Source of the DNA: Candidatus Krumholzibacteriia bacterium
GTDB taxonomy: Bacteria; Krumholzibacteriota; Krumholzibacteriia; Krumholzibacteriales; Krumholzibacteriaceae
Assembly (NCBI GenBank): GCA_963836185.1
Contig: CAWIIQ010000001.1
Coordinates: 256,001 to 320,000, forward strand
Reading direction: 5' to 3'
DNA length: 64,000 nt
Shown: piece after piece, positions 29,031 to 46,934 of the stretch
How the letters are laid out: each line of letters starts with the position of its first letter
Position numbering within the stretch: position 1 is the first letter of the stretch
The notes under the pieces: generated by a model
What the model was told of the DNA's origin: nothing
The model's database searches: none
The model's input: only the letters and a program-made list of their open reading frames with translations
Translations under genes and position numbers: made by a program

Positions 29031-30428
29031 TCACTGCCCGTCCTTGGCAAGGCCGTATGCCTTTATCTTCTTATGGAGGTTCGTCCGCTCGAGGCCGAGC
29101 TCCTCGGCCGCCCTCGTTACGTTCCATCCGTTCCGTTCAAGGGTCCTGCGGATCATTGTCTCCTCGAGTTGCTTCTTCGCCTCCTGGATCGGCATCCCCT
29201 CGAATATCACAGTGTCATTATCCACGGGCTCGTCACCAGTCTCCGAAGCCTGGATGGCAGGGCCGCCCCGCCGGATCTCCTCGCTTACATCTCCGATCGT
29301 TATCGTCCTGCCCTGCGACATGATCACCATCCGCTCGATCTGGTTTCGAAGTTCGCGTACGTTGCCCGGCCAGCTGTATGAGGCGAGTACCTCCGAGACG
29401 CGCGGATCTATCTTCTTCAGCGGGATATCGTTCTCCACGCAGTATTCCTCGAGAAAGGCCTTCGCGAGCACCGGGATATCACCGGGATGCGAGCGCAGGG
29501 GGGGAGCGGTTACAGGTACGACGTTGAGGCGAAAGAAGAGGTCCTCCCTGAATCGCCCTGCCGCAACCTCCGCCTTAAGGTCCTTGTTTGTCGCAGCGAT
29601 GGTGCGTACATCGACCGTGATGATCCGGTCGCTTCCGACTCTCTCGACCTCGCCCTCCTGGAGGACTCGCAGCACCTTCGTCTGCACCTTGAGCGACATG
29701 TCCCCGACCTCGTCGAGAAAGATTGTTCCCCCATCGGCAGCCCTGAACTTGCCCTCTCTCGTCTTGACCGAACCGGTGTAGGCCCCTTTGACGCTTCCGA
29801 ACAGCTCCGCCTCGATCAGCTCCTCGGGGATTGCGGCACAGTTGACCTTTATGAATGCAGCGCCGGAGCGTTTGCTCCTGCGGTGGATCTCGCGGGCTAT
29901 AAGTTCCTTGCCGGTGCCTGATTCGCCAAGTATTAGAACGCGTGTCGATGTCGGGGCGACCTTCGCTACCTGTTCGAGCACGCCGGCTATATCTTTACTC
30001 GCTCCGAGCAGTTTTCTGTCCCCGAGCACACGGGATCGAAGCTTCTCGTTCTCCCTCTCGAGGGAACTCATCTCCCATGCATGCGACGATGTGAGAAGTA
30101 TCTTCTCCTTGCCGACTTCCTTCTCGAGGAAATCGAAGGCGCCGAGCTTGATCGCCTCGACGGCAAGCTCGATCGTACCCTGGCCGGTGAGTATTACGAC
30201 GGGCAGCTGGGGACGGAGGAGTTTTATCTCTTTCAGGATATCGATACCCGACATTCCCGGCATCGACATGTCGAGATACACGAGGTCGTAATCGTCGGAG
30301 CGGATCTTCGCGAGCCCGGCCTCGCCATGCTCCGCCGAATCGGGCTCCCACCCGGCTCCCTTGTGGATCATCTCCATAGTCTTGCGGATATTGGGCTCGT
30401 CATCGATGATCAGGATCTTCCCCGGCAT
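29031..30428 (-). CDS. Sigma54-dependent response regulator (NtrC/NtrX-like: REC-AAA-Fis HTH)
   Basis: ILIIDDE, LDMSMPG, GESGTGKE, ELFGSVKGAYTGS, FLDEVG, FREDLFFRLNV, WPGNVREL, HTH. Confidence 0.95.
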   Translation of the reverse strand: MPGKILIIDDEPNIRKTMEMIHKGAGWEPDSAEHGEAGLAKIRSDDYDLVYLDMSMPGMSGIDILKEIKLLRPQLPVVILTGQGTIELAVEAIKLGAFDFLEKEVGKEKILLTSSHAWEMSSLERENEKLRSRVLGDRKLLGASKDIAGVLEQVAKVAPTSTRVLILGESGTGKELIAREIHRRSKRSGAAFIKVNCAAIPEELIEAELFGSVKGAYTGSVKTREGKFRAADGGTIFLDEVGDMSLKVQTKVLRVLQEGEVERVGSDRIITVDVRTIAATNKDLKAEVAAGRFREDLFFRLNVVPVTAPPLRSHPGDIPVLAKAFLEEYCVENDIPLKKIDPRVSEVLASYSWPGNVRELRNQIERMVIMSQGRTITIGDVSEEIRRGGPAIQASETGDEPVDNDTVIFEGMPIQEAKKQLEETMIRRTLERNGWNVTRAAEELGLERTNLHKKIKAYGLAKDGQ

Positions 30429-30430
30429 CG

Positions 30431-32005
30431 CTACACTTCCTCCGTGTTATTCGTTACGGCGGGCCCGGAAAGGGGCAGCGTTATAGTGAACTTCGCGCCT
30501 CCCCGGTTCTCCGCCTTTATCGTTCCTCCGTGAAGGAGGATTATATTCTTTACCATTGCCAGTCCCAGTCCCGTGCCGCCGCGCCTCTTCGAGAACCAGG
30601 GCTCAAATACGCTGTCGAGATCCTCTTCAGGGATCCCCTGCCCGTTGTCCGCCACCGTAAGTACTGCGTTCTCTCCGACGCGCACTACACCGACCGTTAT
30701 CTCCGGCTTTGTTCCTTCGGGCATCATCCCGATCGCATTCTCGAACAGGTTTACGATGACGCGTCTCACCTGGTCGGCATCGAAGGGGAATGGGGGCGGC
30801 GCGCCGGCAGCATCGATGTCGATATCGGCCTGCGAATAAAGTGCGGCTACATCGGCGGCGAGTTTTTCGAGCGGCTGTTCCGTCGGCGTCAGTCCCGGCA
30901 TCTTCGCGAATGCCGAGAACTCGCGGACCAGCCTCTGCAGGTGGTCGAGCTCCTCGTCGACGACTCTTCCCGATTCAGACAGCAAGGCGCCGTACTCCTC
31001 ATCGCTGCCGTCGTAGCGGTCACGCATCTCCTGCACCGTCAGCCTGATCGGGAGGAGGGGGTTCTTTATCTCGTGGGCAAGATGCCTGGCGAACTCTCTC
31101 CATGCGGCCATCTTCTCGAGGTCGGTCAGCCTGCGCTGCTGCGAGTCGAGAGTTTCTACCATCTCGTTGAATCCATCGACGAGGCTGCCGATCTCTCCGC
31201 CGGTCCTGTCCGAAACGCGGACATCCCAGTTTCCGGCAGCGACCTCGGAAGTAGCGGCGGCGAGATGCTTGACCGGAGAGGCGAAACGTTCCGATATGAG
31301 CAGGGCCGCGAAGAAAGTCAGCGCAGCCACTGCGGCATATATGATCAGGAATGAAAGAAGAAAACTTTTTGTCAGCCTGTTCTCGACTGCTCGAAGCCCG
31401 GCGAATCCCTGGCCCGTCTCGACGAGTTTCTGAGCGGCAGCAATAAACGCAGGGTCCGTCCTGCCATATATGAGAAGAGTCGTATCTGTCTCAGGGTCGT
31501 TCGAGTAAAGGGCGATCATAACCGCCCTGTCTTCTGTCTCGAAGTAACGTATGCCGCCGGCATCCCTGGTAACCGGGTTGCGTTCGATGATGTTGCGGCC
31601 GGCGACAAGGGCGTTGTACTCTTCGATCGATGAGAAGCGTTCAAGGCCTTCCTGCGATCCGTCTCCTGTCAGAACGATCATGAATCCGCGTGCCCCGGGC
31701 GGATACCCGCCCGTTACTACTTCACTGATAAACGCCGTGTCTATTACTGCGGGTGAACCTGCAAGTCCGGGGCGTCTCATCCCCAGTACCTCAAGGACCT
31801 GCGACTCTTCCTCGAAATCCTCACGCAGCCTTTCGAGATATTTCCGCGAGATCGCCATTCCCCCTCCAAGAGCGTCCGACACGGAGCCGCTGAGGCCGAC
31901 ATCGAACGACCGGTCTATCATGTCGCTCACGACGAGCGAGACCGGTATCGCGGGAAGAAGGGCAAGCGTGAGGCATAAAAGGACCAGCCTTGTCCGTATC
32001 GACAT
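30431..32005 (-). CDS. NtrY-like sensor histidine kinase (HAMP-HisKA-HATPase)
   Basis: Two TM segments, HAMP, AWREFARHLAHEIKNPL.PI, NLFENA, DNGQGI, GTGLGL. Confidence 0.93.
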   Translation of the reverse strand: MSIRTRLVLLCLTLALLPAIPVSLVVSDMIDRSFDVGLSGSVSDALGGGMAISRKYLERLREDFEEESQVLEVLGMRRPGLAGSPAVIDTAFISEVVTGGYPPGARGFMIVLTGDGSQEGLERFSSIEEYNALVAGRNIIERNPVTRDAGGIRYFETEDRAVMIALYSNDPETDTTLLIYGRTDPAFIAAAQKLVETGQGFAGLRAVENRLTKSFLLSFLIIYAAVAALTFFAALLISERFASPVKHLAAATSEVAAGNWDVRVSDRTGGEIGSLVDGFNEMVETLDSQQRRLTDLEKMAAWREFARHLAHEIKNPLLPIRLTVQEMRDRYDGSDEEYGALLSESGRVVDEELDHLQRLVREFSAFAKMPGLTPTEQPLEKLAADVAALYSQADIDIDAAGAPPPFPFDADQVRRVIVNLFENAIGMMPEGTKPEITVGVVRVGENAVLTVADNGQGIPEEDLDSVFEPWFSKRRGGTGLGLAMVKNIILLHGGTIKAENRGGAKFTITLPLSGPAVTNNTEEV

Positions 32006-32664
32006 CACTCATTCCTCCCCTGGATCCTTTGTACCTGTTCCGGCGAGACGGGGCCGGCCTCGAACCATTCGCTTCTGCTCGCCGCGTCGCGGCTGCGCGA
32101 GAAGAGATGCGATATCAGGTCGTTTACGTTGAGCACCTGTTCCCTCCATGACGATCCCTGCCTGACACCGGCGCCTTCCTCTATCCAGCCTTCGACCTGT
32201 TCGCCCTCCGATCCGGAGAACGGATTGACCGCTATGCTGAACTTCACCGTGAATCTCTTTCCTTCGGTCAGCCTGGAGAAAGGGATGAGAGAAATGCCCT
32301 TGAGCCGGCTGATCATATTTTCCATGGCTTCTATCGATTCGATAGTGACAGTCGTGTCACCGTCAGAGACGGAGTAGATATCTTCCCAGACATCGTAGCG
32401 GAGCGACCATGAGTGAATTCCCTCGACCTTTACTCCCCGGCCCTTCGTCGAAAGCTGGTAGAAGAGTTCGACGACGGCGGGGAGCCCGCTTTTCACCGTT
32501 CCGGTGATCCTGTCGCTGAGCATCCCGCTGCTCGTGATATCACAGAAGAGGGTGCTGCCGTCAGTATAAATACGGGCATCTTTTATGACGGGGCGGTCCG
32601 ATGACGGGGCACGGGCGGACGCCGGCATTGCGGCAAGGATCAGCCCCGCCGTCATGACCGTCAT
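32005..32664 (-). CDS. DUF4390-like periplasmic protein of NtrY/X-type operons (5' end possibly frameshifted)
   Basis: SGLP, SLRYDVWEDIY motif; directly upstream of the kinase with TGATG coupling. Confidence 0.7.
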   Translation of the reverse strand: MTVMTAGLILAAMPASARAPSSDRPVIKDARIYTDGSTLFCDITSSGMLSDRITGTVKSGLPAVVELFYQLSTKGRGVKVEGIHSWSLRYDVWEDIYSVSDGDTTVTIESIEAMENMISRLKGISLIPFSRLTEGKRFTVKFSIAVNPFSGSEGEQVEGWIEEGAGVRQGSSWREQVLNVNDLISHLFSRSRDAASRSEWFEAGPVSPEQVQRIQGRNE

Positions 32665-35423: not shown

Positions 35424-38123
35424 CTACCTCAGAAGGATCATCTTCTTCGTCTGCTCGAACTTTTCTGCTGTCAGCCGGTAGAAATAGACGCCGCTCGCAG
35501 CGGTTCTTCCCGATGAGTCGCTGCCGTTCCATTCCACTGTATGGCTGCCTCCGGATCGGATCCCGTCTGTCAGCGTCGTGACCAGTCTTCCCGTCACATC
35601 GTAGACGTCGATGCGGACGTGCGATCTCTCCGGCAGATAGAAGGCGATCGACGTCGACGGGTTGAACGGGTTCGGAACATTCTGGTAAAGTGTGAGGGGC
35701 ATCGCCGGCGCCTCGATCTCATCACTCTCGAAGAGGATCCTCCGGCCGCCCGATTCCTCTACCTCTATCCGGTAGAGATAGGTCACTCCCGGCTCGCATG
35801 TGCGATCCTTGACCGTAAAAGACATCCCGTCCCTCTCGAGATGAGCATCGTCGATCTCTTCGAAATCCCCCCCGGGATTCTCCGCACGCAGCACATGGAA
35901 CTCGGTCCCGTCGTCAGCCTGGGAGAGGGTCCAGTTGAGCTCTACCCATGAATCGGTCCACGACGCAGACCAGCTCTGCAGCAGGGTACCGACGTATATA
36001 TTCTCGGGCCTGAGCGTGGCAGCCGGCCCCCTGTTCCCATGAACGTCGACTGCGATGAGCTTGAAGAAATCCTGGTCGGCCGGCGTCCAGCCGGCGTCGA
36101 GAAATTCCGTATCGAATATGCTGCCCACGAAGTTCAGTCCGCCGGGAACAAAGTCCTCGGTCGCTCCCTTGTAGACCTCGTATAGCGAGAGGTCGGCCTC
36201 GGTTCCAGCGTCCCAGTACAGGTTCAGCCCGGGAGGTGCGAGGCTCTGGATGCCGCCGAAAGCGACCGGCTGCGCCGGAGACAGGTTGTCGACCGAGTAG
36301 CCGCTGTCGACCGGCGAGTCGAAGTAGAGGATCGAACCCTCCATATGGGCGGTCACGACAAAGTACTGCCACCCTGGATCGGTACCCATCGAGTCGAACA
36401 GGCTCTCAACCATCAGCGCGTACTCTTCAGCCTGACGTGCGGGGATATAGCCGACCAGTTCCCACGCCTCCCCGGCAGCGGTCTCGAGGTGTCTTACCGC
36501 GCCCACGCTGAGATCCTCGACCGGGCCGGCCTCCGCGAGCGGCATGGCCCGGCTGCTCGCTGCCATCTGGCCGGGTAGGAGCCTCCACGCCGAATAGCTG
36601 TCTATCCAGGCCTCGGGGAACGTATCGGCCTCGCTGGCCATCCACCTGAGCATCAGCCTTCCGCCCTGGTCGTTAGGTACGTCACTGACCGATGAGATCA
36701 CGGGCGGTTCGCTCAGAGGCCCGATCCCGCCATACATATTGATGCGGGAACCGAAGAGATCGAAATCGGCATTCCTGTCATCGGACCAGACGCAGTACGC
36801 GCCGCCCAGCAGGTCACTGGTCATATAAGTTCTGTCGACATCGCTGTCCTCGAAACCCGAAGTGACCTTCCGTCCCCCCGCGGTCCAGCGTGGGGTCCCG
36901 TCGTGGTCGATCTTCTGGGCATACAGTGCCATTGTGCCCTGGTCCGTGTCCCGGAAGTCATACATCAATACAATGGCGCCGCCTTCGCCGTCGGGGCATA
37001 TACATTCAGAGTAGGTCGGCCAGGAGCCGGTGCTGGCCAGGATGCCTCCGGGCCACCACAGGATGTCGCCGTCAGCATCGATTCTCTGTACAGTGGTGTG
37101 GATATCCATCCCTGCACCAAGGGTTCCGGCCACAAATCCGATTATCGCTCCCCCCTCGGTGTCTGTAGTTATTGTAGGTGGCCCTAATGTCGGTATTCCG
37201 TCAGCTATAGCCACTCCATCGGCAGCCCAGTCGCCATTGCCCCACTGATCGACCTTCTGGACGAACACTTCCTCGTCACCCGTCCTGTAATCCGTCCATA
37301 CGATTATGGCCCCCCCCGCACCGTCAGCAACCAGGGCGATGTTTCCCGGCGACGAAGGATCGGTGCACATGGCCGCTCCGGTCGCGCCCCAGGCGACGGC
37401 GCCGGTCAGATCGAACTTCTGGGCGTAGAGGTCGTTATTGCCGGACCTGTTGTCCCGGTAAGCAAGGATGAATTCTCCGCCGCCCGCCGGGATGACCGCC
37501 TGGGGGAACTGGGAGTCGGTGAGATTCGTCATCGGCTGCCCCGTTGCGCCCCAGAGACGATCGCCGTTTTCATCGATGCGCTGTCCTATTATGTCGTATG
37601 AACCGAAACGGTAATCGGACCACAGGACGATCGCTCCGCCGGCGCCGTCGGAGGTCATCAGGAGACTTTGCAGGCCGTTTATCTCGGTGAAGAGGCTGTC
37701 TCCGTTAACGGCCCAGAGAGGATTGCCATCGGGATCAAGCCTCTGGGCGAAGATCGCCATAGCCGGGCCCCGCTCATCCTGCCAGGCGACAATTGCTCCG
37801 CCCGCGCCGTCGGGCACGACCATCTGATAGCTCTGCGTACCAGTGGCGGTACAGACAGGGACGCCTCCCGCCGTCCAGGGAAGGTTCCCATCGGGATCGA
37901 GTCTTGCCGCGTAGATGTCAGGCGGGCCTCCTGTCCGCTCGTCCCTCCATGCTACGATGATCCCTCCGTCTCCGATCGTCTCCGTGATTGCCATATCATA
38001 CTCATCACCGGGCACTCCGGTTATCAGCACCCCGTTCTCCTCCCATACGGCATGGAGCGCGGTGATTCCTGTGATGACGGCGAAAAGCACAAGGACTGAA
38101 GCGACATTTGCGCGGCGTGTCAT
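35424..38123 (-). CDS. DGxGGA/DIYAQR repeat protein (paralog B) with an extra TLLQ domain and FlgD-Ig CTD
   Basis: Start at ATG 38123 after GGAGG, signal peptide; same repeats as paralog A; DSGYSVDNLSP; QNVPNPFNP...KKMILLR. Confidence 0.85.
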   Translation of the reverse strand: MTRRANVASVLVLFAVITGITALHAVWEENGVLITGVPGDEYDMAITETIGDGGIIVAWRDERTGGPPDIYAARLDPDGNLPWTAGGVPVCTATGTQSYQMVVPDGAGGAIVAWQDERGPAMAIFAQRLDPDGNPLWAVNGDSLFTEINGLQSLLMTSDGAGGAIVLWSDYRFGSYDIIGQRIDENGDRLWGATGQPMTNLTDSQFPQAVIPAGGGEFILAYRDNRSGNNDLYAQKFDLTGAVAWGATGAAMCTDPSSPGNIALVADGAGGAIIVWTDYRTGDEEVFVQKVDQWGNGDWAADGVAIADGIPTLGPPTITTDTEGGAIIGFVAGTLGAGMDIHTTVQRIDADGDILWWPGGILASTGSWPTYSECICPDGEGGAIVLMYDFRDTDQGTMALYAQKIDHDGTPRWTAGGRKVTSGFEDSDVDRTYMTSDLLGGAYCVWSDDRNADFDLFGSRINMYGGIGPLSEPPVISSVSDVPNDQGGRLMLRWMASEADTFPEAWIDSYSAWRLLPGQMAASSRAMPLAEAGPVEDLSVGAVRHLETAAGEAWELVGYIPARQAEEYALMVESLFDSMGTDPGWQYFVVTAHMEGSILYFDSPVDSGYSVDNLSPAQPVAFGGIQSLAPPGLNLYWDAGTEADLSLYEVYKGATEDFVPGGLNFVGSIFDTEFLDAGWTPADQDFFKLIAVDVHGNRGPAATLRPENIYVGTLLQSWSASWTDSWVELNWTLSQADDGTEFHVLRAENPGGDFEEIDDAHLERDGMSFTVKDRTCEPGVTYLYRIEVEESGGRRILFESDEIEAPAMPLTLYQNVPNPFNPSTSIAFYLPERSHVRIDVYDVTGRLVTTLTDGIRSGGSHTVEWNGSDSSGRTAASGVYFYRLTAEKFEQTKKMILLR

Positions 38124-38279
38124 GGCACGGCCTCCCTTGAATGTGGAACTGGTTTTGCCTTTTGTGAGAGCGGATGCAGTATAGCATAAGGCGCAGAAAG
38201 GTGAAAACAATTCTGTCTTGTCCGCCAGTGCCGAATAAACATTCCTGTTATATCCTCTGAAAATGCTAGAATATAGAGG

Positions 38280-41200
38280 ATGCACTCGCCGACCGATCAT
38301 AAGATAAAAAGGGCCCGTTCCCTGTGGCTCTCTCTGGCCGCCTTCTGCATACCGGCGGTCATCGCCGTCAGCATATTGCCCGGCAGGGGCGGCACGAGCA
38401 GTTCGCCTCCATCCGCTGCACCTGACTCCCTTTGCAGGATTCTTCCCGCCGGCCCGCGCCCGGTGAGGAACTGGCCTATAAATCTGAGCAACTCGATTAT
38501 ATTTGCTCCCGCAGTGGCTGATATCGACGGCGACGGCACAGATGAGCTTGCCGTCGGGGTCAAGGACTGCCGCGTCTATCTTCTCGAAGGAAACGGGAGG
38601 ATCCTTCCCGGCTGGCCCTGTGAGACGGCTGCATTCATATCCCGCGGTACGATGATGGAAGATATCGATGGGGACGGAGAGTACGAGATCGCGGCCGGAA
38701 GCAACGATGGTCTGCTGCATATGTGGCGCGAGGACGGCAGCATCGTGGAAGGATGGCCGGTCGATCTGGGAGGCAGCGCCGCATCCGCTCCCATACCGAT
38801 TCGCTCTGAGCGGCTGGAGGGCACATCGATACTTGTCTGCAACTCGCCCGGAACCGTTCATCTTCTCTCACCCGCGGGGATCGATCGCGATGGGTGGCCG
38901 AAGAGACTGCCGCAGAGTATTCAAGCGACCCATTCTGACAGGCGGCCCGCCTGGGCAGTGGACCTTGACGGCGACGGCACGGCAGAAGTCATCTGCCAGA
39001 CAACAAGACCTCCAGTGATTCACGCCTGGTACCTCAGCGGCGATGAATATCCCGGATTTCCGATCGAACTGGGAGAAGACCCGGTCATCGGCATGGCGGT
39101 CAATGATAATTCAGATCCCGGGCGTATCGCCTCTCTGACAGCATTCGAGGTCTTCCTCCGGAACCTCGATAACGGGAATGTGATATCTCTTTCCCCGGTG
39201 AGTGAGAAGGATGTTTTCTTCGCCGGCCCCTGGTTTGTTTCGTCTGGAGAGGGGGGAGACGCGAAACCGGATCTCATCCTCGCTTCGACAATGAAGGGCC
39301 GGGTATATATGTGGGATCTCGATGGCCGGCTGAAGACGGGCTGGCCGGTCGACACAGACGGATTTATCTACGGTCTCCGCGAGGATCAGGAAAACCACGA
39401 GATCTTCGGGCCGCCGATAATGGCCGATGTAGATGGAGATGGCAGGAACGAGATAATACTGGGAAGCCGAGACCACCACCTTTACTGCTTCGAGCTCGAT
39501 GGTGCTCCTGTCCCGGGCTGGCCGGTCGTCCTTGACGATTTCATCTTCAACGCGTTGACCCTCGCGCAGCTGGACGGCAAAGGTGCTGAAGAACTGGTCG
39601 TCGGCCAGGCCGGAGAGACCCTCTTCGCCTGGCATCTTGATCCGTTCCGGCCTGTAAGAGAGGCGGGCGGCAGCCCTGAACCCCGCGCGTATTCAGAATG
39701 GCCGCCTGTATACTATACTGTTGCTCTTTTTATCCTGCTCATGCTGCTTCTCCTTATGCATCTGCTCAGGATGGAACTGACAGGTCATTTCGATTCCACG
39801 GGAAGAAGACTGCGTGGTGCGCTGATCTTCTTCAGCCTCTTCCTGGTGATCAGGGCGCTCTTCTTCGCCGGCGATCTCTACAGGTACAGGACTGTGATCG
39901 ACAGGCTCGAAAAAGCTGAGACAGCTGTGAGGACAAAACTTGAAACCGAACGTGTCGAGGCGCAGAAGCTGACGGATAAGCTCGCTGTAGATCTCCGGGC
40001 CTGCAGGCCTGAGAATCTCCTGGACCCGCACAGGGCCCTGCGCTGCCTCGAGCGGCTTGCTGACCGCAATCGTCTCGAATACAGGTTCAGCGGGATTCTT
40101 ATGGCTGATCGTTCGGGGCGTGTCATCAGGGGAGTGGGCCTGGGAAGAGGATGGTTCCATCTTTCAGAGATGGGACTGGAGGAAGGCGGCGCCGAAGATC
40201 CCGTGCTCCTCGGTGATATCCCCGTCTTTGCGACCGAGAGCGGCGTCGGCCTCTCCGGCGGACAGGATACATTGCGGGTTTTTCTTCTTACGAGTCTGCT
40301 CAACAAGGTCCCGAACTCGTTGGCTGACGCGACGGGATTTTCCGCCCATATCCTTGTCGACGGGATGCCGATGGCCTGGGGAGGCGCGGGTCCGCGGCCG
40401 TTCAGGAGCCTTCGCCCCTGGCTCGGCATCGTTCAGCCTTCGAGAGAGATGTCGATCGCTCGTTCACAGGACCAGCATGAGGTTACGGTCCTTCTCGCAA
40501 AAGAGGATTTCGACCGGCCTTTCTCGCAGTGGCTCGACCTCATGGCGGTCCTGATCATGCCCTGCATCTACCTTTTTGTCGCGAGATGGCAGGGGAGCAA
40601 GGGCAAGGTCAGGTTGAAGTACTGGTGGATAATCTCGTTCGCCCTGCTATATGTCATCGCCTCTGTTCTGCTTCATCGAGGCAGACTCGATGCAGGGCCC
40701 GTTCCGGCAGCGGGACGTGTACTCGAGGTGCTGCTGCACATGGCAGGGGTCACCGGAGTCGTTGTCGCGCTGCATCGGATAGTGACCTCGCGCAGGAGCC
40801 GGCGTCTCAATTTCGCCCTGCTGGGATCTTACCTCTTCGTGAGCCTGATACCCCTGACGGTGATAATGATCGTCGGGGGGAATCTCTTTCTCGGCGTTCA
40901 GCGCGGTGTTGTCGAAAAGACGATCGAGGGGCTGGAGAAACGGGCCGACAATATGGTCCTTGCCTATGTAGGAAACATGGGATTCAACAATCTGCTCGGC
41001 AAGGCCGGACCGGAGCTTTTCGAACTTTCCACAGAGACGAGCTGGCTCAACTTTGTCGCGGAGAACCAGTACCTGTTCACCTACGACCTGCCGAGTGCCT
41101 ACATCACACTCTGGGCCAGTGACAGGAATGATCCTGACAGATTCTTCACAGGCTATTCATACACGGCTCCCCGGACCGGGAAGCTCTACTACAAAAGGCC

Positions 41201-42527
41201 AGGCTGGACAAGGGGGCAGAATGTAAAGGGCCTGTTCCTCGACAACGGCACCGCGGTGGTCAGGGCGATTCGGATGTACCGGTTCAGAGAGTATGAGATG
41301 GACCTCGTCAGCCATATCACGATAGACGACAGGATAATCAGCGAGATGGAGGACCGGCTCAGGGTGGTGCCGTTCATGCCCCGCATCCATCTCGAACCGG
41401 CCTGGCTCGAGTCGACGACCGAGAGAAGCAGGCCGGAGGGCTGGTACATCCCGTATGCCAGTGAACTGGTCCTGCAGGCGAGGGGATGGTATTCCGGCAA
41501 ACCCCGCTGGGCCATATACAGGGCGAGCATGTATATACCCGCCGGCAAAGATATGCTCAACGTCCTTGTTCCCCTGATCCTGCTGATCCTTCTTCCTCTC
41601 GGGCTCTCGTTCTGGGGGGCTTACACGACATTCAAGAGGACGGCCAGGCCTCTGACACGCCTGCTGACAGGTATCAGGCGCGTGGGGCAGGGCGACCTCG
41701 AGTACCGACTCGGGGAGTCGGGACAGTCGGAGATAGGGCTCGCGGCCCGCTCGTTCGATACGATGGCGGCGAGTCTAGAGGAGACGATCGATGAGCTCGC
41801 CGCGAAGAAGAAGGTCGAGGAGGTAAGCGAGCTGAAGAGCCACTTCATCTCGATGGTGAGCCACGATCTGAAGACGCCGCTCTCATCGATAAAGGGAGCG
41901 ACCGAGAATATCCTCGAGGAAGTCGCCGGGCCGGTGACGGACCGCCAGCGCCGGTACCTGGAGATGATAATAAAAAGCAGCGGTGACCTTCAGAGGATGA
42001 TCACCGATCTGCTCGATCTGTCCCGTATCGAGAGCGGACGGCTGACACTCGATATAGAGCCGCTCGATATACGGCGCGAGGCGGAGGACCTGCTGCGCTC
42101 AATCGCTCCCCTGCTCGAGAGGGAGGAAATGACCGGTCTGCTGAAAATCACCGCGGAAGAGACGATCGTGCAGGGAGACAGGACGAGAGTATGGCAGATC
42201 CTCAACAATGTCGTCTCGAACGCCATCCGTCATTCGCCCGAGGGAGGGAGTGTCGAGATAAGGATAGATGATATCCAGGTCGATGAGACTGACGGCCGGC
42301 GAATGCTGCGGGTATCGGTCAGAGATGAGGGACCCGGTATCGATGATGAGGATGCGGCGAAGCTGTTCGAACCATTCTTCTACCGGTCGTCGGGAAGGGC
42401 AGGTGCCCACGGTGCCGGGCTAGGCCTCGCTATCGTCAAGCAGCTCGTCGAACTTCATGGTGGGTCAGTATCGCTGAAAAGCGCCATGGCAGGTGGCGCT
42501 GTCTTCTCCTTCACCCTTCCTGTCTGA
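38280..42527 (+). CDS. Large membrane sensor histidine kinase with extracellular FG-GAP/'GWP' repeats, multi-TM region, HAMP, HisKA and HATPase
   Basis: DIDGDG..E repeats with PGWP; several TM helices; SMVSHDLKTPL, NNVVSNA, DEGPGI, GAGLGL. Confidence 0.9.
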   Translation: MHSPTDHKIKRARSLWLSLAAFCIPAVIAVSILPGRGGTSSSPPSAAPDSLCRILPAGPRPVRNWPINLSNSIIFAPAVADIDGDGTDELAVGVKDCRVYLLEGNGRILPGWPCETAAFISRGTMMEDIDGDGEYEIAAGSNDGLLHMWREDGSIVEGWPVDLGGSAASAPIPIRSERLEGTSILVCNSPGTVHLLSPAGIDRDGWPKRLPQSIQATHSDRRPAWAVDLDGDGTAEVICQTTRPPVIHAWYLSGDEYPGFPIELGEDPVIGMAVNDNSDPGRIASLTAFEVFLRNLDNGNVISLSPVSEKDVFFAGPWFVSSGEGGDAKPDLILASTMKGRVYMWDLDGRLKTGWPVDTDGFIYGLREDQENHEIFGPPIMADVDGDGRNEIILGSRDHHLYCFELDGAPVPGWPVVLDDFIFNALTLAQLDGKGAEELVVGQAGETLFAWHLDPFRPVREAGGSPEPRAYSEWPPVYYTVALFILLMLLLLMHLLRMELTGHFDSTGRRLRGALIFFSLFLVIRALFFAGDLYRYRTVIDRLEKAETAVRTKLETERVEAQKLTDKLAVDLRACRPENLLDPHRALRCLERLADRNRLEYRFSGILMADRSGRVIRGVGLGRGWFHLSEMGLEEGGAEDPVLLGDIPVFATESGVGLSGGQDTLRVFLLTSLLNKVPNSLADATGFSAHILVDGMPMAWGGAGPRPFRSLRPWLGIVQPSREMSIARSQDQHEVTVLLAKEDFDRPFSQWLDLMAVLIMPCIYLFVARWQGSKGKVRLKYWWIISFALLYVIASVLLHRGRLDAGPVPAAGRVLEVLLHMAGVTGVVVALHRIVTSRRSRRLNFALLGSYLFVSLIPLTVIMIVGGNLFLGVQRGVVEKTIEGLEKRADNMVLAYVGNMGFNNLLGKAGPELFELSTETSWLNFVAENQYLFTYDLPSAYITLWASDRNDPDRFFTGYSYTAPRTGKLYYKRPGWTRGQNVKGLFLDNGTAVVRAIRMYRFREYEMDLVSHITIDDRIISEMEDRLRVVPFMPRIHLEPAWLESTTERSRPEGWYIPYASELVLQARGWYSGKPRWAIYRASMYIPAGKDMLNVLVPLILLILLPLGLSFWGAYTTFKRTARPLTRLLTGIRRVGQGDLEYRLGESGQSEIGLAARSFDTMAASLEETIDELAAKKKVEEVSELKSHFISMVSHDLKTPLSSIKGATENILEEVAGPVTDRQRRYLEMIIKSSGDLQRMITDLLDLSRIESGRLTLDIEPLDIRREAEDLLRSIAPLLEREEMTGLLKITAEETIVQGDRTRVWQILNNVVSNAIRHSPEGGSVEIRIDDIQVDETDGRRMLRVSVRDEGPGIDDEDAAKLFEPFFYRSSGRAGAHGAGLGLAIVKQLVELHGGSVSLKSAMAGGAVFSFTLPV

Positions 42528-42584
42528 ACAGGGCTTTTCCCTAAAAAAAGGTGTACATCCGGGTTGCGATAGAGGCATAATCGC

Positions 42585-42722
42585 TGCGCATAAATTGCGC
42601 GGCAAGTGGATGGAAGATTGCCGTAAAATCGCGATACGTGAAATACCTTGGATGACAACTGACTTATTGACAGCATGTTATAAAAGCAGTCCGGCTGATG
42701 TCGTGATGGTATGCTATGTGCA
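42585..42722 (+). promoter_or_regulatory. Sigma54 promoter plus activator box upstream of the response regulator (probable autoregulation)
   Basis: TGCGCATAAATTGCGCG (42585-601) and TGGTATGCTATGTGCA (GG 42708-09, GC 42720-21). Confidence 0.6.
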
Positions 42723-42774
42723 GTATATGTGAGTTCGATTCCATGGAAATCATGACGGAACGGATGTCAGCAAG

Positions 42775-44148
42775 ATGCCTGAAAAAGGGATAAACGGAGC
42801 GGCACGGATACTCGTCGTCGAGGACGATGAGAGTCTGCGGATGATCATAACCGACCGCCTCGCCGATATGGGATACCGGGTAAGCCAGGCCTCGAGTCTC
42901 AGGGAGGCTTTCGAGGAACTCGACAGGGAGAGCTGCCAGCTTGTTCTGCTCGATATTTTCCTGCCCGATCAGAGCGGGCTCGAGGGGCTGAAAGAGATGC
43001 GCGGCATATTCCCGTCAATGCCGGTGCTCGTCATGACCGCTCACGGAACGATCGACATGGCGGTCGAGGCTATGAGGGAAGGCGCCTACGAGTTCGTCAC
43101 AAAGCCGCTCGATTTCAAGCGCCTCGGGGTCCTCGTTCAGAGGGCGATCGAGAGCTTCCAGCTCAGGACAGAGGTAGATTATCTCAGGCGCGCGGCCGAT
43201 GAGCCTTTTACCCTGATAGTCGGCGAGAGGACAGGGTTGAGAAGCGTCATGGAACTTGTCCGGCAGGTTGCTGATTCCGACTCGACAGTACTTCTGCGTG
43301 GAGAGACCGGGACGGGGAAGGAAGTGGTCGCCAGAAAGATATGCAGGCTCTCCAAAAGGGGGAAAAAGCCGTTTGTCGTGGCGAACAGCGCGGCGATTCC
43401 GAGGGACCTGATGGAGAGCGAGATGTTCGGCCACGTCAAGGGTTCCTTCACCGGCGCTATCGCAGACAGGGCCGGGGTCTTTGAGACTGCCGGCGACGGT
43501 ACCCTTCTACTCGACGAGATAGGCGATCTCGATTACAACCTGCAGGCAAAGATCCTCAGGGTCCTCGAGGATGGTTCATTCAGGAGGATCGGGGCGAAGG
43601 CGCCGCAGAGCAGCCGGGCCCGGATACTTGCTTCGACCCATCAGAACCTTGAAAGACTGATCGAGGAGAAACGTTTCAGGGAGGACCTTTACTATCGTCT
43701 CAATGTATTTCCGATCACGATCCCACCTCTGCGCCACAGGCGTGAGGACATCCCCGATTTCGCGAAATTCTTCCTGCAGCTCGCTACGAGGGGCGGCCGT
43801 GGCGGATTGACGGAGATCAGCGATGACGCGATCGACGTGCTGGTCGATTATCCATGGCCGGGAAATGTGCGCGAGTTGAAGAACCTGATGGAACGGCTCG
43901 CGATTACGATGTCGGGGCGCACGATAAAAGCCGATGATGCCAGGACGTATCTCGGGCAGGCGAGGATCGCAAAGCCGGAGATCGTGGTGCGGCCCATGGT
44001 AGAACTAGAAAAACAGGCGATCATCGAGGCGCTCGACAAGTACAACGGCAATCGTACCATAGCCGCCGCAGCTCTCGGAATCAGCAGGCGCACACTTCAG
44101 AACAAGCTCAAGTCGTACGGCATGCCCGATTACGGAAACACCGGTTGA
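42775..44148 (+). CDS. Sigma54-dependent response regulator (NtrC/AtoC/ZraR-like)
   Basis: ILVVEDD, LLDIFLPD, GETGTGKE, ESEMFGHVKGSFTGA, LLDEIG, FREDLYYRLNV, WPGNVREL, Fis HTH. Confidence 0.95.
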   Translation: MPEKGINGAARILVVEDDESLRMIITDRLADMGYRVSQASSLREAFEELDRESCQLVLLDIFLPDQSGLEGLKEMRGIFPSMPVLVMTAHGTIDMAVEAMREGAYEFVTKPLDFKRLGVLVQRAIESFQLRTEVDYLRRAADEPFTLIVGERTGLRSVMELVRQVADSDSTVLLRGETGTGKEVVARKICRLSKRGKKPFVVANSAAIPRDLMESEMFGHVKGSFTGAIADRAGVFETAGDGTLLLDEIGDLDYNLQAKILRVLEDGSFRRIGAKAPQSSRARILASTHQNLERLIEEKRFREDLYYRLNVFPITIPPLRHRREDIPDFAKFFLQLATRGGRGGLTEISDDAIDVLVDYPWPGNVRELKNLMERLAITMSGRTIKADDARTYLGQARIAKPEIVVRPMVELEKQAIIEALDKYNGNRTIAAAALGISRRTLQNKLKSYGMPDYGNTG

Positions 44149-44180
44149 CATATATCACAGCTCTGTAAACAGGCGTTAAC

Positions 44181-44319
44181 TGCGCAGATGTTGCGCATTA
44201 GTGCGTATATTCTGCGCACCATTTCACCCCTCCAGCCGGATGCCCATATAGTTAATACATTGATAACAAATCGGTTAACATCTTGTGAAACTCTTGCTGT
44301 TTTTGGAACGAAGGATGCA
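44181..44319 (+). promoter_or_regulatory. Complete sigma54 enhancer-dependent promoter (two activator boxes, IHF site, -24/-12)
   Basis: TGCGCAGATGTTGCGCA (44181-97), TGCGTATATTCTGCGCA (44202-18), IHF consensus TAATACATTGATA (44253-65), TGGAACGAAGGATGCA (GG 44305-06, GC 44317-18). Confidence 0.8.
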
Positions 44320-44330
44320 TATACAGTATT

Positions 44331-44460
44331 GCCAGCAAAGTGCGAACCGGGGGGGATACTTGGTTTGCAATATACTCTTGCTAAGATAAGCGGAAGAGGT
44401 GAGCACCGGGGTTGTTGTGGAATGGCCGGGTACCTGCAATGGGACCCGGCCTTTCTTTGT
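44331..44460 (+). ncRNA. Candidate sigma54-dependent small RNA (~130 nt)
   Basis: Bounded by the sigma54 promoter and an intrinsic terminator. 5' hairpin TGCGAACC-GGGGGGGATACTT-GGTTTGCA. No credible ORF, and the next gene is convergent. Confidence 0.65.
44424..44460 (+). terminator. Intrinsic terminator of the candidate sRNA
   Basis: GGCCGGGT...ACCCGGCC followed by TTTCTTTGT. Confidence 0.75.
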
Positions 44461-44507: not shown

Positions 44508-46934
44508 TCACCTCAACAGGATCATCTTCTTCGTCTCTTCGAAATCACCCGCACGCAGCCTGTAGAAGTAGACGCCGCTGGCCGTGTCTGTCCCGTTCCG
44601 GTCCTTTCCGTTCCATGCGGCGGCGTACTTACCGGCAGACCTCGATCCGTCGATAAGTGTCGCGACGAGTCTTCCCGCCGCATCGTAAATGCTCAGCCTC
44701 ACATGTCCCTTCTTTTTGAGACCGAACGTGATAATCGTGTTCGGGTTGAACGGGTTGGGATAGTTTTGCGCGAGGAATGTCGCTTCGGGCACGGGCATCG
44801 GGTCGCCGCCGGTGACATCGGAAGGTCCTGTCATGGCGAAAGGTCCCTCGTTGCCATGGATATCGACGGCATTGATCTTGTACCAGTACCCTGCTTCCCA
44901 TGTCCAGTCATCGTCGAACAGTTCCTCTTCTTTGGTCGATGTAAGATAGTTTCCCGGTGCGGGGACGAAATCGCTCGAGGTCCCCCGGTAGATGCTGTAG
45001 GCGATGACATCTTCTTCTTCGTTCGGATCCCAGGTCAGCGCCATTCCTTCCGGCGAAAATGACTGTGTGCCGGCCAGGCCTGTCGGCGCGAGTGGGGCGA
45101 GGTTGTCGACCGAGTACCCACTGTCCGGATCTGATATCCAGAAGAGATAAGGATCGGCAGTGTGCGCTATCACCTGGAAATAATGCAGGTCCCAGGCAAC
45201 GGCGGTTGAGTCGAAAAGGGTCTCGGCTGCGTAGGAATACTGCTCCAGGTAATAGGCGGGAGCGATGCCGACAAGCTGCCAGTAGAATTCGTCGTCGTAA
45301 AGTGTCGAAGATCTGAGCACGGGGCGGTCGATCTCCCCCGGATTAAGCCCGGACAGTTCAGCCGGGCTGCCGAGAAGATGCGCTCCTTTCTCGATCATAG
45401 TCAGCGCGGGCGGCAGTTCGATGGCTCGCCATATAGTGTATTCAGTTATCATGTGTGCGAGTACATCGGCTGGTGACGCGTCCCAGGCTACGACTACGCG
45501 GCCGCCTTCATCACCCGGAACATCGGTCACTGAGTGGATGGCGGGCGGCCGGTTCGCGGTCCTTCCGGATGCATCTATCTGCTGGATGTAGAGATCTTCA
45601 TTGCCGTTTCTTTCATCCACCCACAGTATTATCGCACCGCCTCCGCCGTCACCGGTCAGCTTCGGAATCTTCTGATTCCCGACCGACGTGCATACAGCGA
45701 CACCGTTCATGGTCCAGCGAACAGTTCCCGAAGCGTCGATCCGCTGAGCATAGATGTCATCATCGCTGTTTCTCTCATCGTGCCATGTCAGGATGGCTCC
45801 CCCGGCATCGTCCGATATGATCTGGATGGTATTCTGGGTGCCTGGATCCGTACATACGGGGACTCCATCGGCGGTCCACAGGGACGTTCCCGAAGAATTG
45901 ATCCGCTGTACATAAACGTCATTGTTCCCGTTTCGGTAGTCCTGCCATGTCACGATCGCTCCGTTTGCTCCATCGGAAACGAGATATGTGATCGACTGGT
46001 GAAGTGGTGCTCCGGACACCAGGACTCCATCAGTTGCCCAGAGCACGGTGCCTGCCGCATCGAATCGTTGAGCATAGACGTCATAGGTATAGGAACGATA
46101 ATCATGCCAAACGACGATCGCTCCATCGACTCCATCCGATATTACCTGAGGGGAGAACTGGTTATGATTTGCCGTGCATACGGGGACGCCGGCAGCTCCC
46201 CACTGGATGGTCCCGTTGAAATCGATCCGTTGAATATAGAGATCCTGGTACGATGCCGGGCGCTGGTCCTCCCAGACGATAAATGCACCTCCAGCGCCAT
46301 CAGGCCCTATCTGTATTTTAAACTGTCCCGAGGGGTCAGAGCATATTTGAACGCCGTTCAATGTCCATTGAGGTGCACCGGATTCGTTTAACCTCTGTGC
46401 ATACGCTCTGTAATATCCGTTTCTCCAGTCATGCCATACTATGATCGCCCCGCCCTGCGTATCTGAGATGATCAAAGGCGTTTTCTGGTTCCCGGTGATA
46501 GTACACACAGGAAGCCCGACAGCGGTCCACAGCATGTTACCCTGGCCGTCGATTCTCTGGGCGTATATGTCGATATCACTGTTCCTGGTGTCCTCCCATG
46601 TGACGATCGCTCCGTCAACTCCATCCCTGATGACCTGGGGGTAATTCTGGCTCAGGCTCGCTGTGCTGAGTATGATGCCGTCAGCCGTCCACAGGGCATT
46701 TCCCCCGGCATCGATCCGTTGGATATATACATCGTTGTTGACCCCGGCCCTTTCGTCGTACCAGACAGCGAACGCTCCCGCTGCCCCGTCAGGGGCCACT
46801 TGCTGGGTATTCTGGTCATTGATCGCTGTACAGACCGGTGTTCCCTGGTCGGTCCAGAATGCATGCAGCGACGGCATGGCGACCAGTGATGAAAAGAGAA
46901 TGACAAGGAACAGAGTCCTGGATGTCCTGCTCAT
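44508..46934 (-). CDS. DGxGGA/DIYAQR repeat protein (paralog C) with FlgD-Ig CTD
   Basis: AGGAGG SD, signal peptide, regular repeats; QNYPNPFNP...KKMILLR. Confidence 0.85.
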   Translation of the reverse strand: MSRTSRTLFLVILFSSLVAMPSLHAFWTDQGTPVCTAINDQNTQQVAPDGAAGAFAVWYDERAGVNNDVYIQRIDAGGNALWTADGIILSTASLSQNYPQVIRDGVDGAIVTWEDTRNSDIDIYAQRIDGQGNMLWTAVGLPVCTITGNQKTPLIISDTQGGAIIVWHDWRNGYYRAYAQRLNESGAPQWTLNGVQICSDPSGQFKIQIGPDGAGGAFIVWEDQRPASYQDLYIQRIDFNGTIQWGAAGVPVCTANHNQFSPQVISDGVDGAIVVWHDYRSYTYDVYAQRFDAAGTVLWATDGVLVSGAPLHQSITYLVSDGANGAIVTWQDYRNGNNDVYVQRINSSGTSLWTADGVPVCTDPGTQNTIQIISDDAGGAILTWHDERNSDDDIYAQRIDASGTVRWTMNGVAVCTSVGNQKIPKLTGDGGGGAIILWVDERNGNEDLYIQQIDASGRTANRPPAIHSVTDVPGDEGGRVVVAWDASPADVLAHMITEYTIWRAIELPPALTMIEKGAHLLGSPAELSGLNPGEIDRPVLRSSTLYDDEFYWQLVGIAPAYYLEQYSYAAETLFDSTAVAWDLHYFQVIAHTADPYLFWISDPDSGYSVDNLAPLAPTGLAGTQSFSPEGMALTWDPNEEEDVIAYSIYRGTSSDFVPAPGNYLTSTKEEELFDDDWTWEAGYWYKINAVDIHGNEGPFAMTGPSDVTGGDPMPVPEATFLAQNYPNPFNPNTIITFGLKKKGHVRLSIYDAAGRLVATLIDGSRSAGKYAAAWNGKDRNGTDTASGVYFYRLRAGDFEETKKMILLR

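Follow-up and report, generated by a model that had tools for sequence, protein, structure and literature searches.

A kinase-activator locus of Krumholzibacteriia with a conserved, sigma-54-linked non-coding RNA: a putative sponge of a C-rich partner RNA

What does a two-component system control when the sigma-54 promoter behind its activator gene is followed by no protein-coding gene on the same strand? This question is raised by positions 38,280 to 44,460 of a stretch of 64,000 nucleotides (nt) from Candidatus Krumholzibacteriia bacterium (the window; assembly GCA_963836185.1, contig CAWIIQ010000001.1), in which genes for a sensor histidine kinase and an NtrC-family sigma-54 activator are followed by two putative activator boxes, a -24/-12 element and a predicted transcript of ~130 nt (the window RNA). 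We compared 208 genomes of the phylum; as assemblies are incomplete, genes missed are reported as "not found" rather than as absent. G000 denotes the 3.5-Mb genome carrying the window, and other G and L numbers denote the other genomes and loci compared. The comparison indicates that the window RNA is very probably a real, activator-driven non-coding RNA, and it favors, with less certainty, the reading that this RNA is a sponge whose G-rich motif pairs with a C-rich loop in another small RNA (the partner RNA).

The activator-linked promoter and the window RNA

The elements between the activator gene and the next gene are as follows:

44181..44197: activator box 1, TGCGCA-N5-TGCGCA, exact, centre at -141
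44202..44218: activator box 2, TGCGTA-N5-TGCGCA, one mismatch, centre at -120
44253..44265, minus strand: match to the integration host factor (IHF) consensus in an AT-rich spacer, exact in G000
44304..44318, plus strand: sigma-54 -24/-12 promoter of the window RNA, GG-N10-GC, found by sequence and conserved
44330..44460, plus strand: predicted non-coding RNA, ~130 nt, delimited by alignments, with homologues in relatives and no Rfam match
44347..44356, plus strand: G-rich motif common to the RNA subfamilies, CCGG(A/G)GGGA, complementary to the loop of the partner RNA
44424..44459, plus strand: GC-rich terminator-like hairpin with an imperfect U-tail (folding, sequence)
44508..46934, minus strand: convergent gene for a secreted repeat protein with a type IX secretion system (T9SS)-type C-terminal domain; given for context and not read from the RNA promoter

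The original prediction, made from the window sequence, had described two 17-base-pair (bp) TGCGCA-N5-TGCGCA boxes at -141 and -120, with 21 bp from centre to centre. The spacing and both positions were confirmed, while only box 1 is perfect, the left half of box 2 (TGCGTA) containing one mismatch. The GG-N10-GC element was likewise present where it had been placed (44304-18), and the next gene (44508-46934) is indeed convergent, on the minus strand. Boxes 1 and 2 represent the sole TGCRYA-N5-TRYGCA sites in the G000 genome, for which ~3 such sites would be expected by composition; as this number is near chance expectation, the evidence lies in the spacing and placement of the boxes and not in their count. 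For the full pattern of a box pair plus promoter, ~0.0006 occurrences would be expected by composition in G000.

Among the 208 genomes, this composite pattern occurred once per genome in 16, with 15 of the 16 matches at the kinase locus, and its reversed control occurred in 0/208. The pattern was derived from kinase loci, so that recovery of those loci is by construction; the informative part is thus the single copy per genome together with the lack of matches to the reversed control. In all 16 loci the box centres fell within 2 nt of -141/-120 and the GG-N10-GC -24/-12 element was conserved. Conservation of boxes and -24/-12 element beside orthologous activators, which had been set beforehand as a test, was therefore observed in most of the 18 kinase genomes. 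The supposed consensus IHF site fared less well; it is exact in G000 (on the minus strand), with 2-3 mismatches in 9/9 relatives tested. G000 encodes one rpoN and three HU/IHF proteins, each of which scored under the IHF cut-offs.

Kinase orthologues were found in 18 of the 208 genomes, and every one of the 32 kinase proteins compared was at least 41% identical. In 11 of these 18 genomes, the activator gene is followed by the box pair and promoter and then by a G-motif RNA with its terminator, and one further genome has the full set with the promoter position inside an N gap. The module is inverted in G038, where the G-motif goes with the promoter strand. In G176 (L094) and G177 (L093), boxes and promoter precede a different RNA of ~180 nt with GGTGGGGG and an internal C-tract, for which Rfam gave no match, and in G065 (L096) they stand directly before a gene for a 1112-amino-acid (aa) secreted protein, whose leader is similar to the window RNA at its 5' end. 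None of the module was located behind the activator in G071, and the contig of G001 ends early. The sixteenth pattern match, in G074 (L099), is located between a related activator, apparently without a receiver domain, and a gene for a secreted protein. Genes downstream of the module vary between genomes.

The window RNA itself showed a predicted folding energy of -49.3 kcal/mol in G000 (z -2.3), with z-scores from -1.2 to -5.4 among 15 homologues, and its sequence identity to 5 relatives from the genus is 75-87%. A search of sequencing runs listed none of RNA that holds it, an outcome that weighs neither for nor against the transcript. Between the two RNA subfamilies only the motif CCGG(A/G)GGGA is common (G038 has CTGG), and in G008 two tandem copies of the motif occur. 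Second-subfamily homologues showed two-sided changes in 13/34 pairs (4 sequences). The intrinsic terminator of the original prediction is present as a hairpin; its U-tail is imperfect, and a simple terminator scanner did not report it. No Rfam family matched the window RNA at gathering or E-value thresholds; this includes the models for Pxr, CrcZ, GlmY and Qrr, as well as 6S RNA (RF00013), which was located elsewhere in 5/5 genomes. No open reading frame was conserved among the homologues, which agrees with the earlier view that the RNA contains no credible one.

Box and sigma-54 element were combined at only two promoters in G000, i.e., those of the window RNA and of the activator gene, which suggests that the RNA is likely the sole output of the kinase and activator besides the activator's own gene. 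Overall, conservation supports the reading of a sigma-54 activator that acts on a neighboring non-coding RNA; what the original prediction overlooked is the box and promoter before the activator gene and the predicted partner RNA.

A candidate partner RNA and the proposed pairing

A scan of the intergenic DNA of G000 for the complement of the G-rich motif yielded 74 sites, one of which represents the partner RNA:

G000:C1:1229324-1229419 (= L155:7324-7419), plus strand: partner RNA, ~95 nt, hairpin or Y-shaped, with a U-tail and a sigma-70-like promoter

This RNA was picked for complementarity and not for conservation, yet it was found in 41/51 other genomes of the order, as well as in two genomes of family f9. 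A TTGAC hexamer is located 35-48 nt upstream in 30/30 loci. Among the loci shown, the loop region GGA(C/T)ATCCCCTCCG does not vary, and the RNA has two invariant loops overall; its stems showed two-sided changes in 13/31 pairs, a value reached by 0/500 shuffles, although kinship may inflate it. Within the order, the partner RNA is present in each of the 14 genomes that carry the kinase. In the 4 kinase genomes outside the order it was not found by BLAST or model searches, and in these 4 the boxes are not followed by the GGAGGGGA motif.

When the motifs of 14 window RNA homologues were set against the partner loop, 139 of 140 core cells were found to pair (135 Watson-Crick and 4 G-U pairs), with 1 mismatch. 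The comparisons left out L070 (same locus as G003) and L071, L072, L073, G001 and the partner-side contig of G177 (contigs end early). The predicted helix comprises 9-16 contiguous pairs and is lengthened 3' in one RNA subfamily and 5' in the other. A G-rich region complementary to the C-rich region of a conserved small RNA, as in RosA and RsaI, was thus present. When the 810 CCCC(C/T)CC sites of G000 were ranked by Watson-Crick cells, the partner site came first. The longest helix (16 pairs) is that of G038, which extends into a position where the partner RNA of this genome differs; the G038 motif favors its own partner variant by 3.9 kcal/mol (-31.2 vs -27.3), and the own partner was preferred by 3/3 motifs of family f1. 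No convincing mRNA target emerged when all leaders were scanned naively for duplexes, and a complement search in 14 genomes gave matches too numerous to use.

We hypothesize that an extracytoplasmic signal would alter kinase activity and so lead to phosphorylation of the activator, which, as the conserved sites suggest, would bind the -141/-120 boxes and open the sigma-54 promoter, while the single box and second promoter would boost the activator gene. The motif CCGG(A/G)GGGA of the RNA would then pair with the invariant loop region of the partner RNA. By analogy with RoxS-type RNAs, UCCCCUCC of the partner may block ribosome-binding sites of the GGAGGGG type, and sponging would free the mRNAs concerned, many of which might encode secreted proteins. 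This last step was suggested by the observation that signal-peptide-like starts occur in 34/53 genes with GGAGGGG sites as compared to 249/704 genes with other GGAGG sites (P = 4e-5, uncorrected for 16 classes), and a C-terminal sorting motif in 8/53 as compared to 18/704 (P = 2e-4, also uncorrected for 16 classes); 5 of the 8 sorting-motif genes share sequence with another of the 8, and both gene calls and signal-peptide calls come from rough custom scripts. For the secreted protein that follows the promoter in G065, G000 encodes 16 paralogues, 3 of them with GGAGGGG sites, and its best homologue in G000 is the gene convergent on the window RNA (35% identity, E 2e-80), so that both wirings may perhaps end in secreted repeat proteins. 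The full chain through to secreted proteins is tentative.

A number of observations weigh against the sponge reading or its extension. The motif resembles a plain ribosome-binding site, and complementarity to any anti-Shine-Dalgarno RNA is thus partly built in. By mean duplex energy the partner site only ties for first of 10,161 sites, the other being C3:58149, and both rankings are post hoc, as the partner came from a scan for this same complement. As the loop of the partner does not vary, lineage-matched changes are limited to one (that in G038), and co-folding yields a small net gain (-0.4 to -11 kcal/mol). Covarying stems, which had been proposed as a check, were not observed in 7 close homologues of the window RNA, in which internal hairpins showed no two-sided changes and the 5' stem was only 76% paired; the conserved feature is thus the motif and not a proven fold. 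The GGGGA loop is open in the G000 fold, while accessibility of the motif differs among the 15 homologues. For the RNAs of G176 and G177, where the motif differs, no partner RNA was found by model and pattern searches. The partner RNA is also far more widespread than the sensor, and patterns of presence and absence track kinship and hence are not independent. Finally, genes with GGAGGTT sites are likewise rich in signal peptides (28/45).

Further small RNAs were observed along with the partner RNA. Tandem partial copies of the C-rich arm of the partner occur in G003, G005 and G008. Just upstream of the partner, at G000:C1:~1229083-1229270 (plus strand), a third conserved RNA carries a sigma-54 element in 20/29 loci and an invariant GTGGGGTCT in 29/29; motifs akin to those of this RNA are located at the same position in G176, G074, G065 and G071. 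A rod-shaped RNA with a C7-8 tip at G000:C3:~195070-195245 (plus strand) is preceded by a sigma-54-like element whose -12 part is non-standard and was found in 20/52 genomes of the order. Rfam searches at gathering and E-value thresholds returned no match for the partner RNA, the upstream third RNA or the RNAs of family f6; a suspected likeness of an f6 RNA to the c-di-AMP riboswitch was unsupported by Rfam.

Alternative explanations and known systems

The evidence for a real sigma-54-driven RNA would also suit an RNA whose main target is not the partner but mRNAs or a different C-rich RNA, for example by opening anti-Shine-Dalgarno stems as GlmZ does, or by sponging the C7-tip RNA at G000:C3:~195070-195245. 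That RNA is a second conserved C-rich RNA, present in the 20/52 genomes mentioned, a duplex of about -20 kcal/mol is predicted between it and the all-G motif variant, and RosA sponges two RNAs (PMC8216469). Pairing with the C7 RNA was, however, weaker than pairing with the partner in 6/6 valid comparisons (the row for G002, for which a wrong site was picked, was left out), the complement did not show a clear pile-up in leaders, and the tying site C3:58149 was found in just 1/5 relatives of the genus; we thus regard this explanation as unlikely. It is distinctly unlikely that the RNA is instead a protein decoy of the CsrB, CrcZ or GlmY type, with a complementarity that is incidental or due to a shared protein partner. 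CrcZ and GlmY do share the gene layout, G-runs are recurrent in loops, and KhpA/B-type proteins were found in 5/5 genomes tested. Gene content led us to reject decoys for Hfq (CrcZ-type), CsrA (CsrB/RsmZ-type) and RapZ (GlmY-type): Hfq was found in 0/208 genomes of the phylum and RapZ in 0/5 genomes, and CsrA, which is present in 120/208 genomes and patchy by family, was found in none of the RNA carriers (0 in genera g1, g2, g3 and g18 and in family f6). Protein sponges carry many motif copies, whereas most of the RNAs here have a single copy, i.e., one conserved motif instead of the many GGA loops of CsrB/RsmZ; the G-U-tolerant substitutions in the motif fit base pairing.

Two further explanations concern the G-rich ribosome site that the motif resembles. 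The transcript might represent the leftover leader of a lost secreted-protein gene, whose promoter and ribosome site persist without a role in trans; in G065, boxes and promoter come before the gene of the 1112-aa secreted protein, which has a G-rich ribosome site about as far from the start, and G074 shows a similar arrangement. We consider this very unlikely, as RNA body and terminator are kept across genera despite changing neighbors, the module survives inversion, and the second-subfamily homologues show the two-sided changes given above. A very small peptide encoded behind the ribosome site is less probable still, and extremely so; a TTG codon 6 nt past the GGNGG core in G000, L069 and G002 would open similar 9-residue peptides, but frame, length and start differ in G003, G004, G005 and G006, and G027, G007 and G083 have no start 2-14 nt past the core. 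A conserved peptide was rejected, since frame, length and start are not kept among homologues.

The original prediction had presented the locus as a candidate new system and likened it to CbrAB-crcZ and LuxO-qrr1. The likeness is borne out, as in both an adjoining sigma-54 activator is combined with a small RNA, and the claim of novelty does not hold for the layout, which has precedents in pxrK-pxrR-pxr, cbrAB-crcZ and GlrKR-glmY. Qrr RNAs of Vibrio depend on Hfq and pair with mRNAs; LuxO-Qrr1 resembles the locus in placing a sigma-54 activator beside its small RNA, while the activator of the window scored 357 as compared to a LuxO cut-off of 800 and remained under all NCBIfam equivalog cut-offs shown. 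The protein for which GlmY serves as a decoy, RapZ, was not found in the five genomes searched here, and the Rfam model of GlmY did not match the window RNA. The report on GlrK/GlrR (QseE/QseF) and GlmY describes a sigma-54 small RNA with upstream activator sites and a requirement for IHF (PMC3045617). CbrA-CbrB-CrcZ of Pseudomonadaceae (PMC8871633) has a sigma-54 small RNA after two-component genes that acts by sequestration; CrcZ antagonizes the Hfq/Crc complex, whereas Hfq was not found in this phylum, and CbrB has sites of the TGTTAC type and controls many genes, as compared to two promoters here.

PxrK-PxrR(Nla19)-Pxr of Myxococcus xanthus (PMC10217877, PMC5568312, PMC11928866) comprises a kinase, a sigma-54 response regulator and then a stand-alone small RNA. 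The two systems share gene layout, a sigma-54 promoter and a lineage without detected Hfq; they differ in that the first stem-loop of Pxr, judging from a primer in PMC5568312, contains a C-run, while the window RNA is G-rich, as well as in sensor architecture and in the lack of an Rfam match. G-rich RNAs directed against C-rich small RNAs are exemplified by RosA, which pairs with RoxS and FsrA in Bacillus subtilis, and by RsaI in Staphylococcus aureus (PMC8216469). These resemble the window RNA as stand-alone G-rich RNAs opposed to a C-rich small RNA where Hfq has no global role; RosA is described there as ~229 nt long, with a sigma-A promoter, repression by CcpA and three G-regions, while the window RNA has one motif, a dedicated sensor and sigma-54, occurs in an unrelated phylum and showed no homology by Rfam. 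An RpoN-dependent anti-Shine-Dalgarno small RNA, described in PMC11187230, is not a sponge. Among top-ranked literature matches we found no publication on this system, on a sigma-54-driven G-rich sponge or on regulatory RNAs of this phylum.

Judged from the sequences, the combination is best read as a two-component-controlled RNA sponge that would join the Pxr/CrcZ gene layout with RosA-RoxS logic. A wider version, which we put forward with considerable doubt, is that a sigma-54 RNA mimicking a ribosome site titrates an order-wide anti-Shine-Dalgarno RNA and frees a set of secreted-protein mRNAs, and that this constitutes the whole kinase output besides autoregulation. The RNA may derive from the leader of the secreted-protein gene located directly behind the same promoter in a distant relative, and could belong to a network in this phylum that operates free of Hfq and includes four or more small RNAs not described before. 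If true, this would represent a signaling design whereby a two-component system exerts control through the removal of another RNA, and would join the sigma-54 small RNA layout (Pxr, CrcZ, GlmY) with G-rich sponge logic (RosA) in a phylum without detectable Hfq; an orphan RNA would thus become precisely testable through two short RNAs, a predicted helix of 12-16 bp and defined compensatory mutations.

The sensor, the activator gene and the neighborhood

The genes and elements upstream of the RNA module are:

38280..42527, plus strand: sensor histidine kinase, 1415 aa, with FG-GAP repeats, HAMP, HisKA and HATPase (Pfam) and 8 helices (hydropathy)
42585..42601: single activator box before the activator gene; a similar box occurs in most orthologous kinase-activator spacers
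42707..42721, plus strand: sigma-54 -24/-12 element before the activator gene, one of the two box-plus-promoter sites in G000
42775..44148, plus strand: NtrC-family sigma-54 activator, 457 aa, with REC, AAA (GSFTGA loop) and HTH_8

Given the box and -24/-12 element before its gene, the activator is predicted to regulate itself positively. Hydropathy analysis of the kinase predicted 8 membrane helices and two extracytoplasmic domains in addition to the FG-GAP region; as the number of helices is even, the FG-GAP region and the two further domains would be located outside and the kinase core inside. The signal, which the original prediction assigned to the FG-GAP domain, may thus be sensed by this region or by either of the other two domains. 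For the third extracytoplasmic domain (residues 835-1118), the structural model showed a helix-strand sensor fold with a predicted local distance difference test (pLDDT) score of 80.5. Helix-strand order and weak Atlas leads at 0.90-0.91 hint that this modeled domain might be Cache-like.

A -10-like TAGAAT is located ~8 nt before the ATG of the kinase gene, with no ribosome site (window 38260-38282), and similar arrangements occur in several relatives; the kinase mRNA is possibly near-leaderless. The locus sits in a cluster of genes for secreted repeat proteins with T9SS-type C-terminal domains (35424-38123 and 44508-46934, both on the minus strand, and beyond). The window also contains, at 29031-32664 on the minus strand, a second pair of kinase and sigma-54 activator genes with a small gene upstream, which from its layout we take to be NtrY/NtrX-like.

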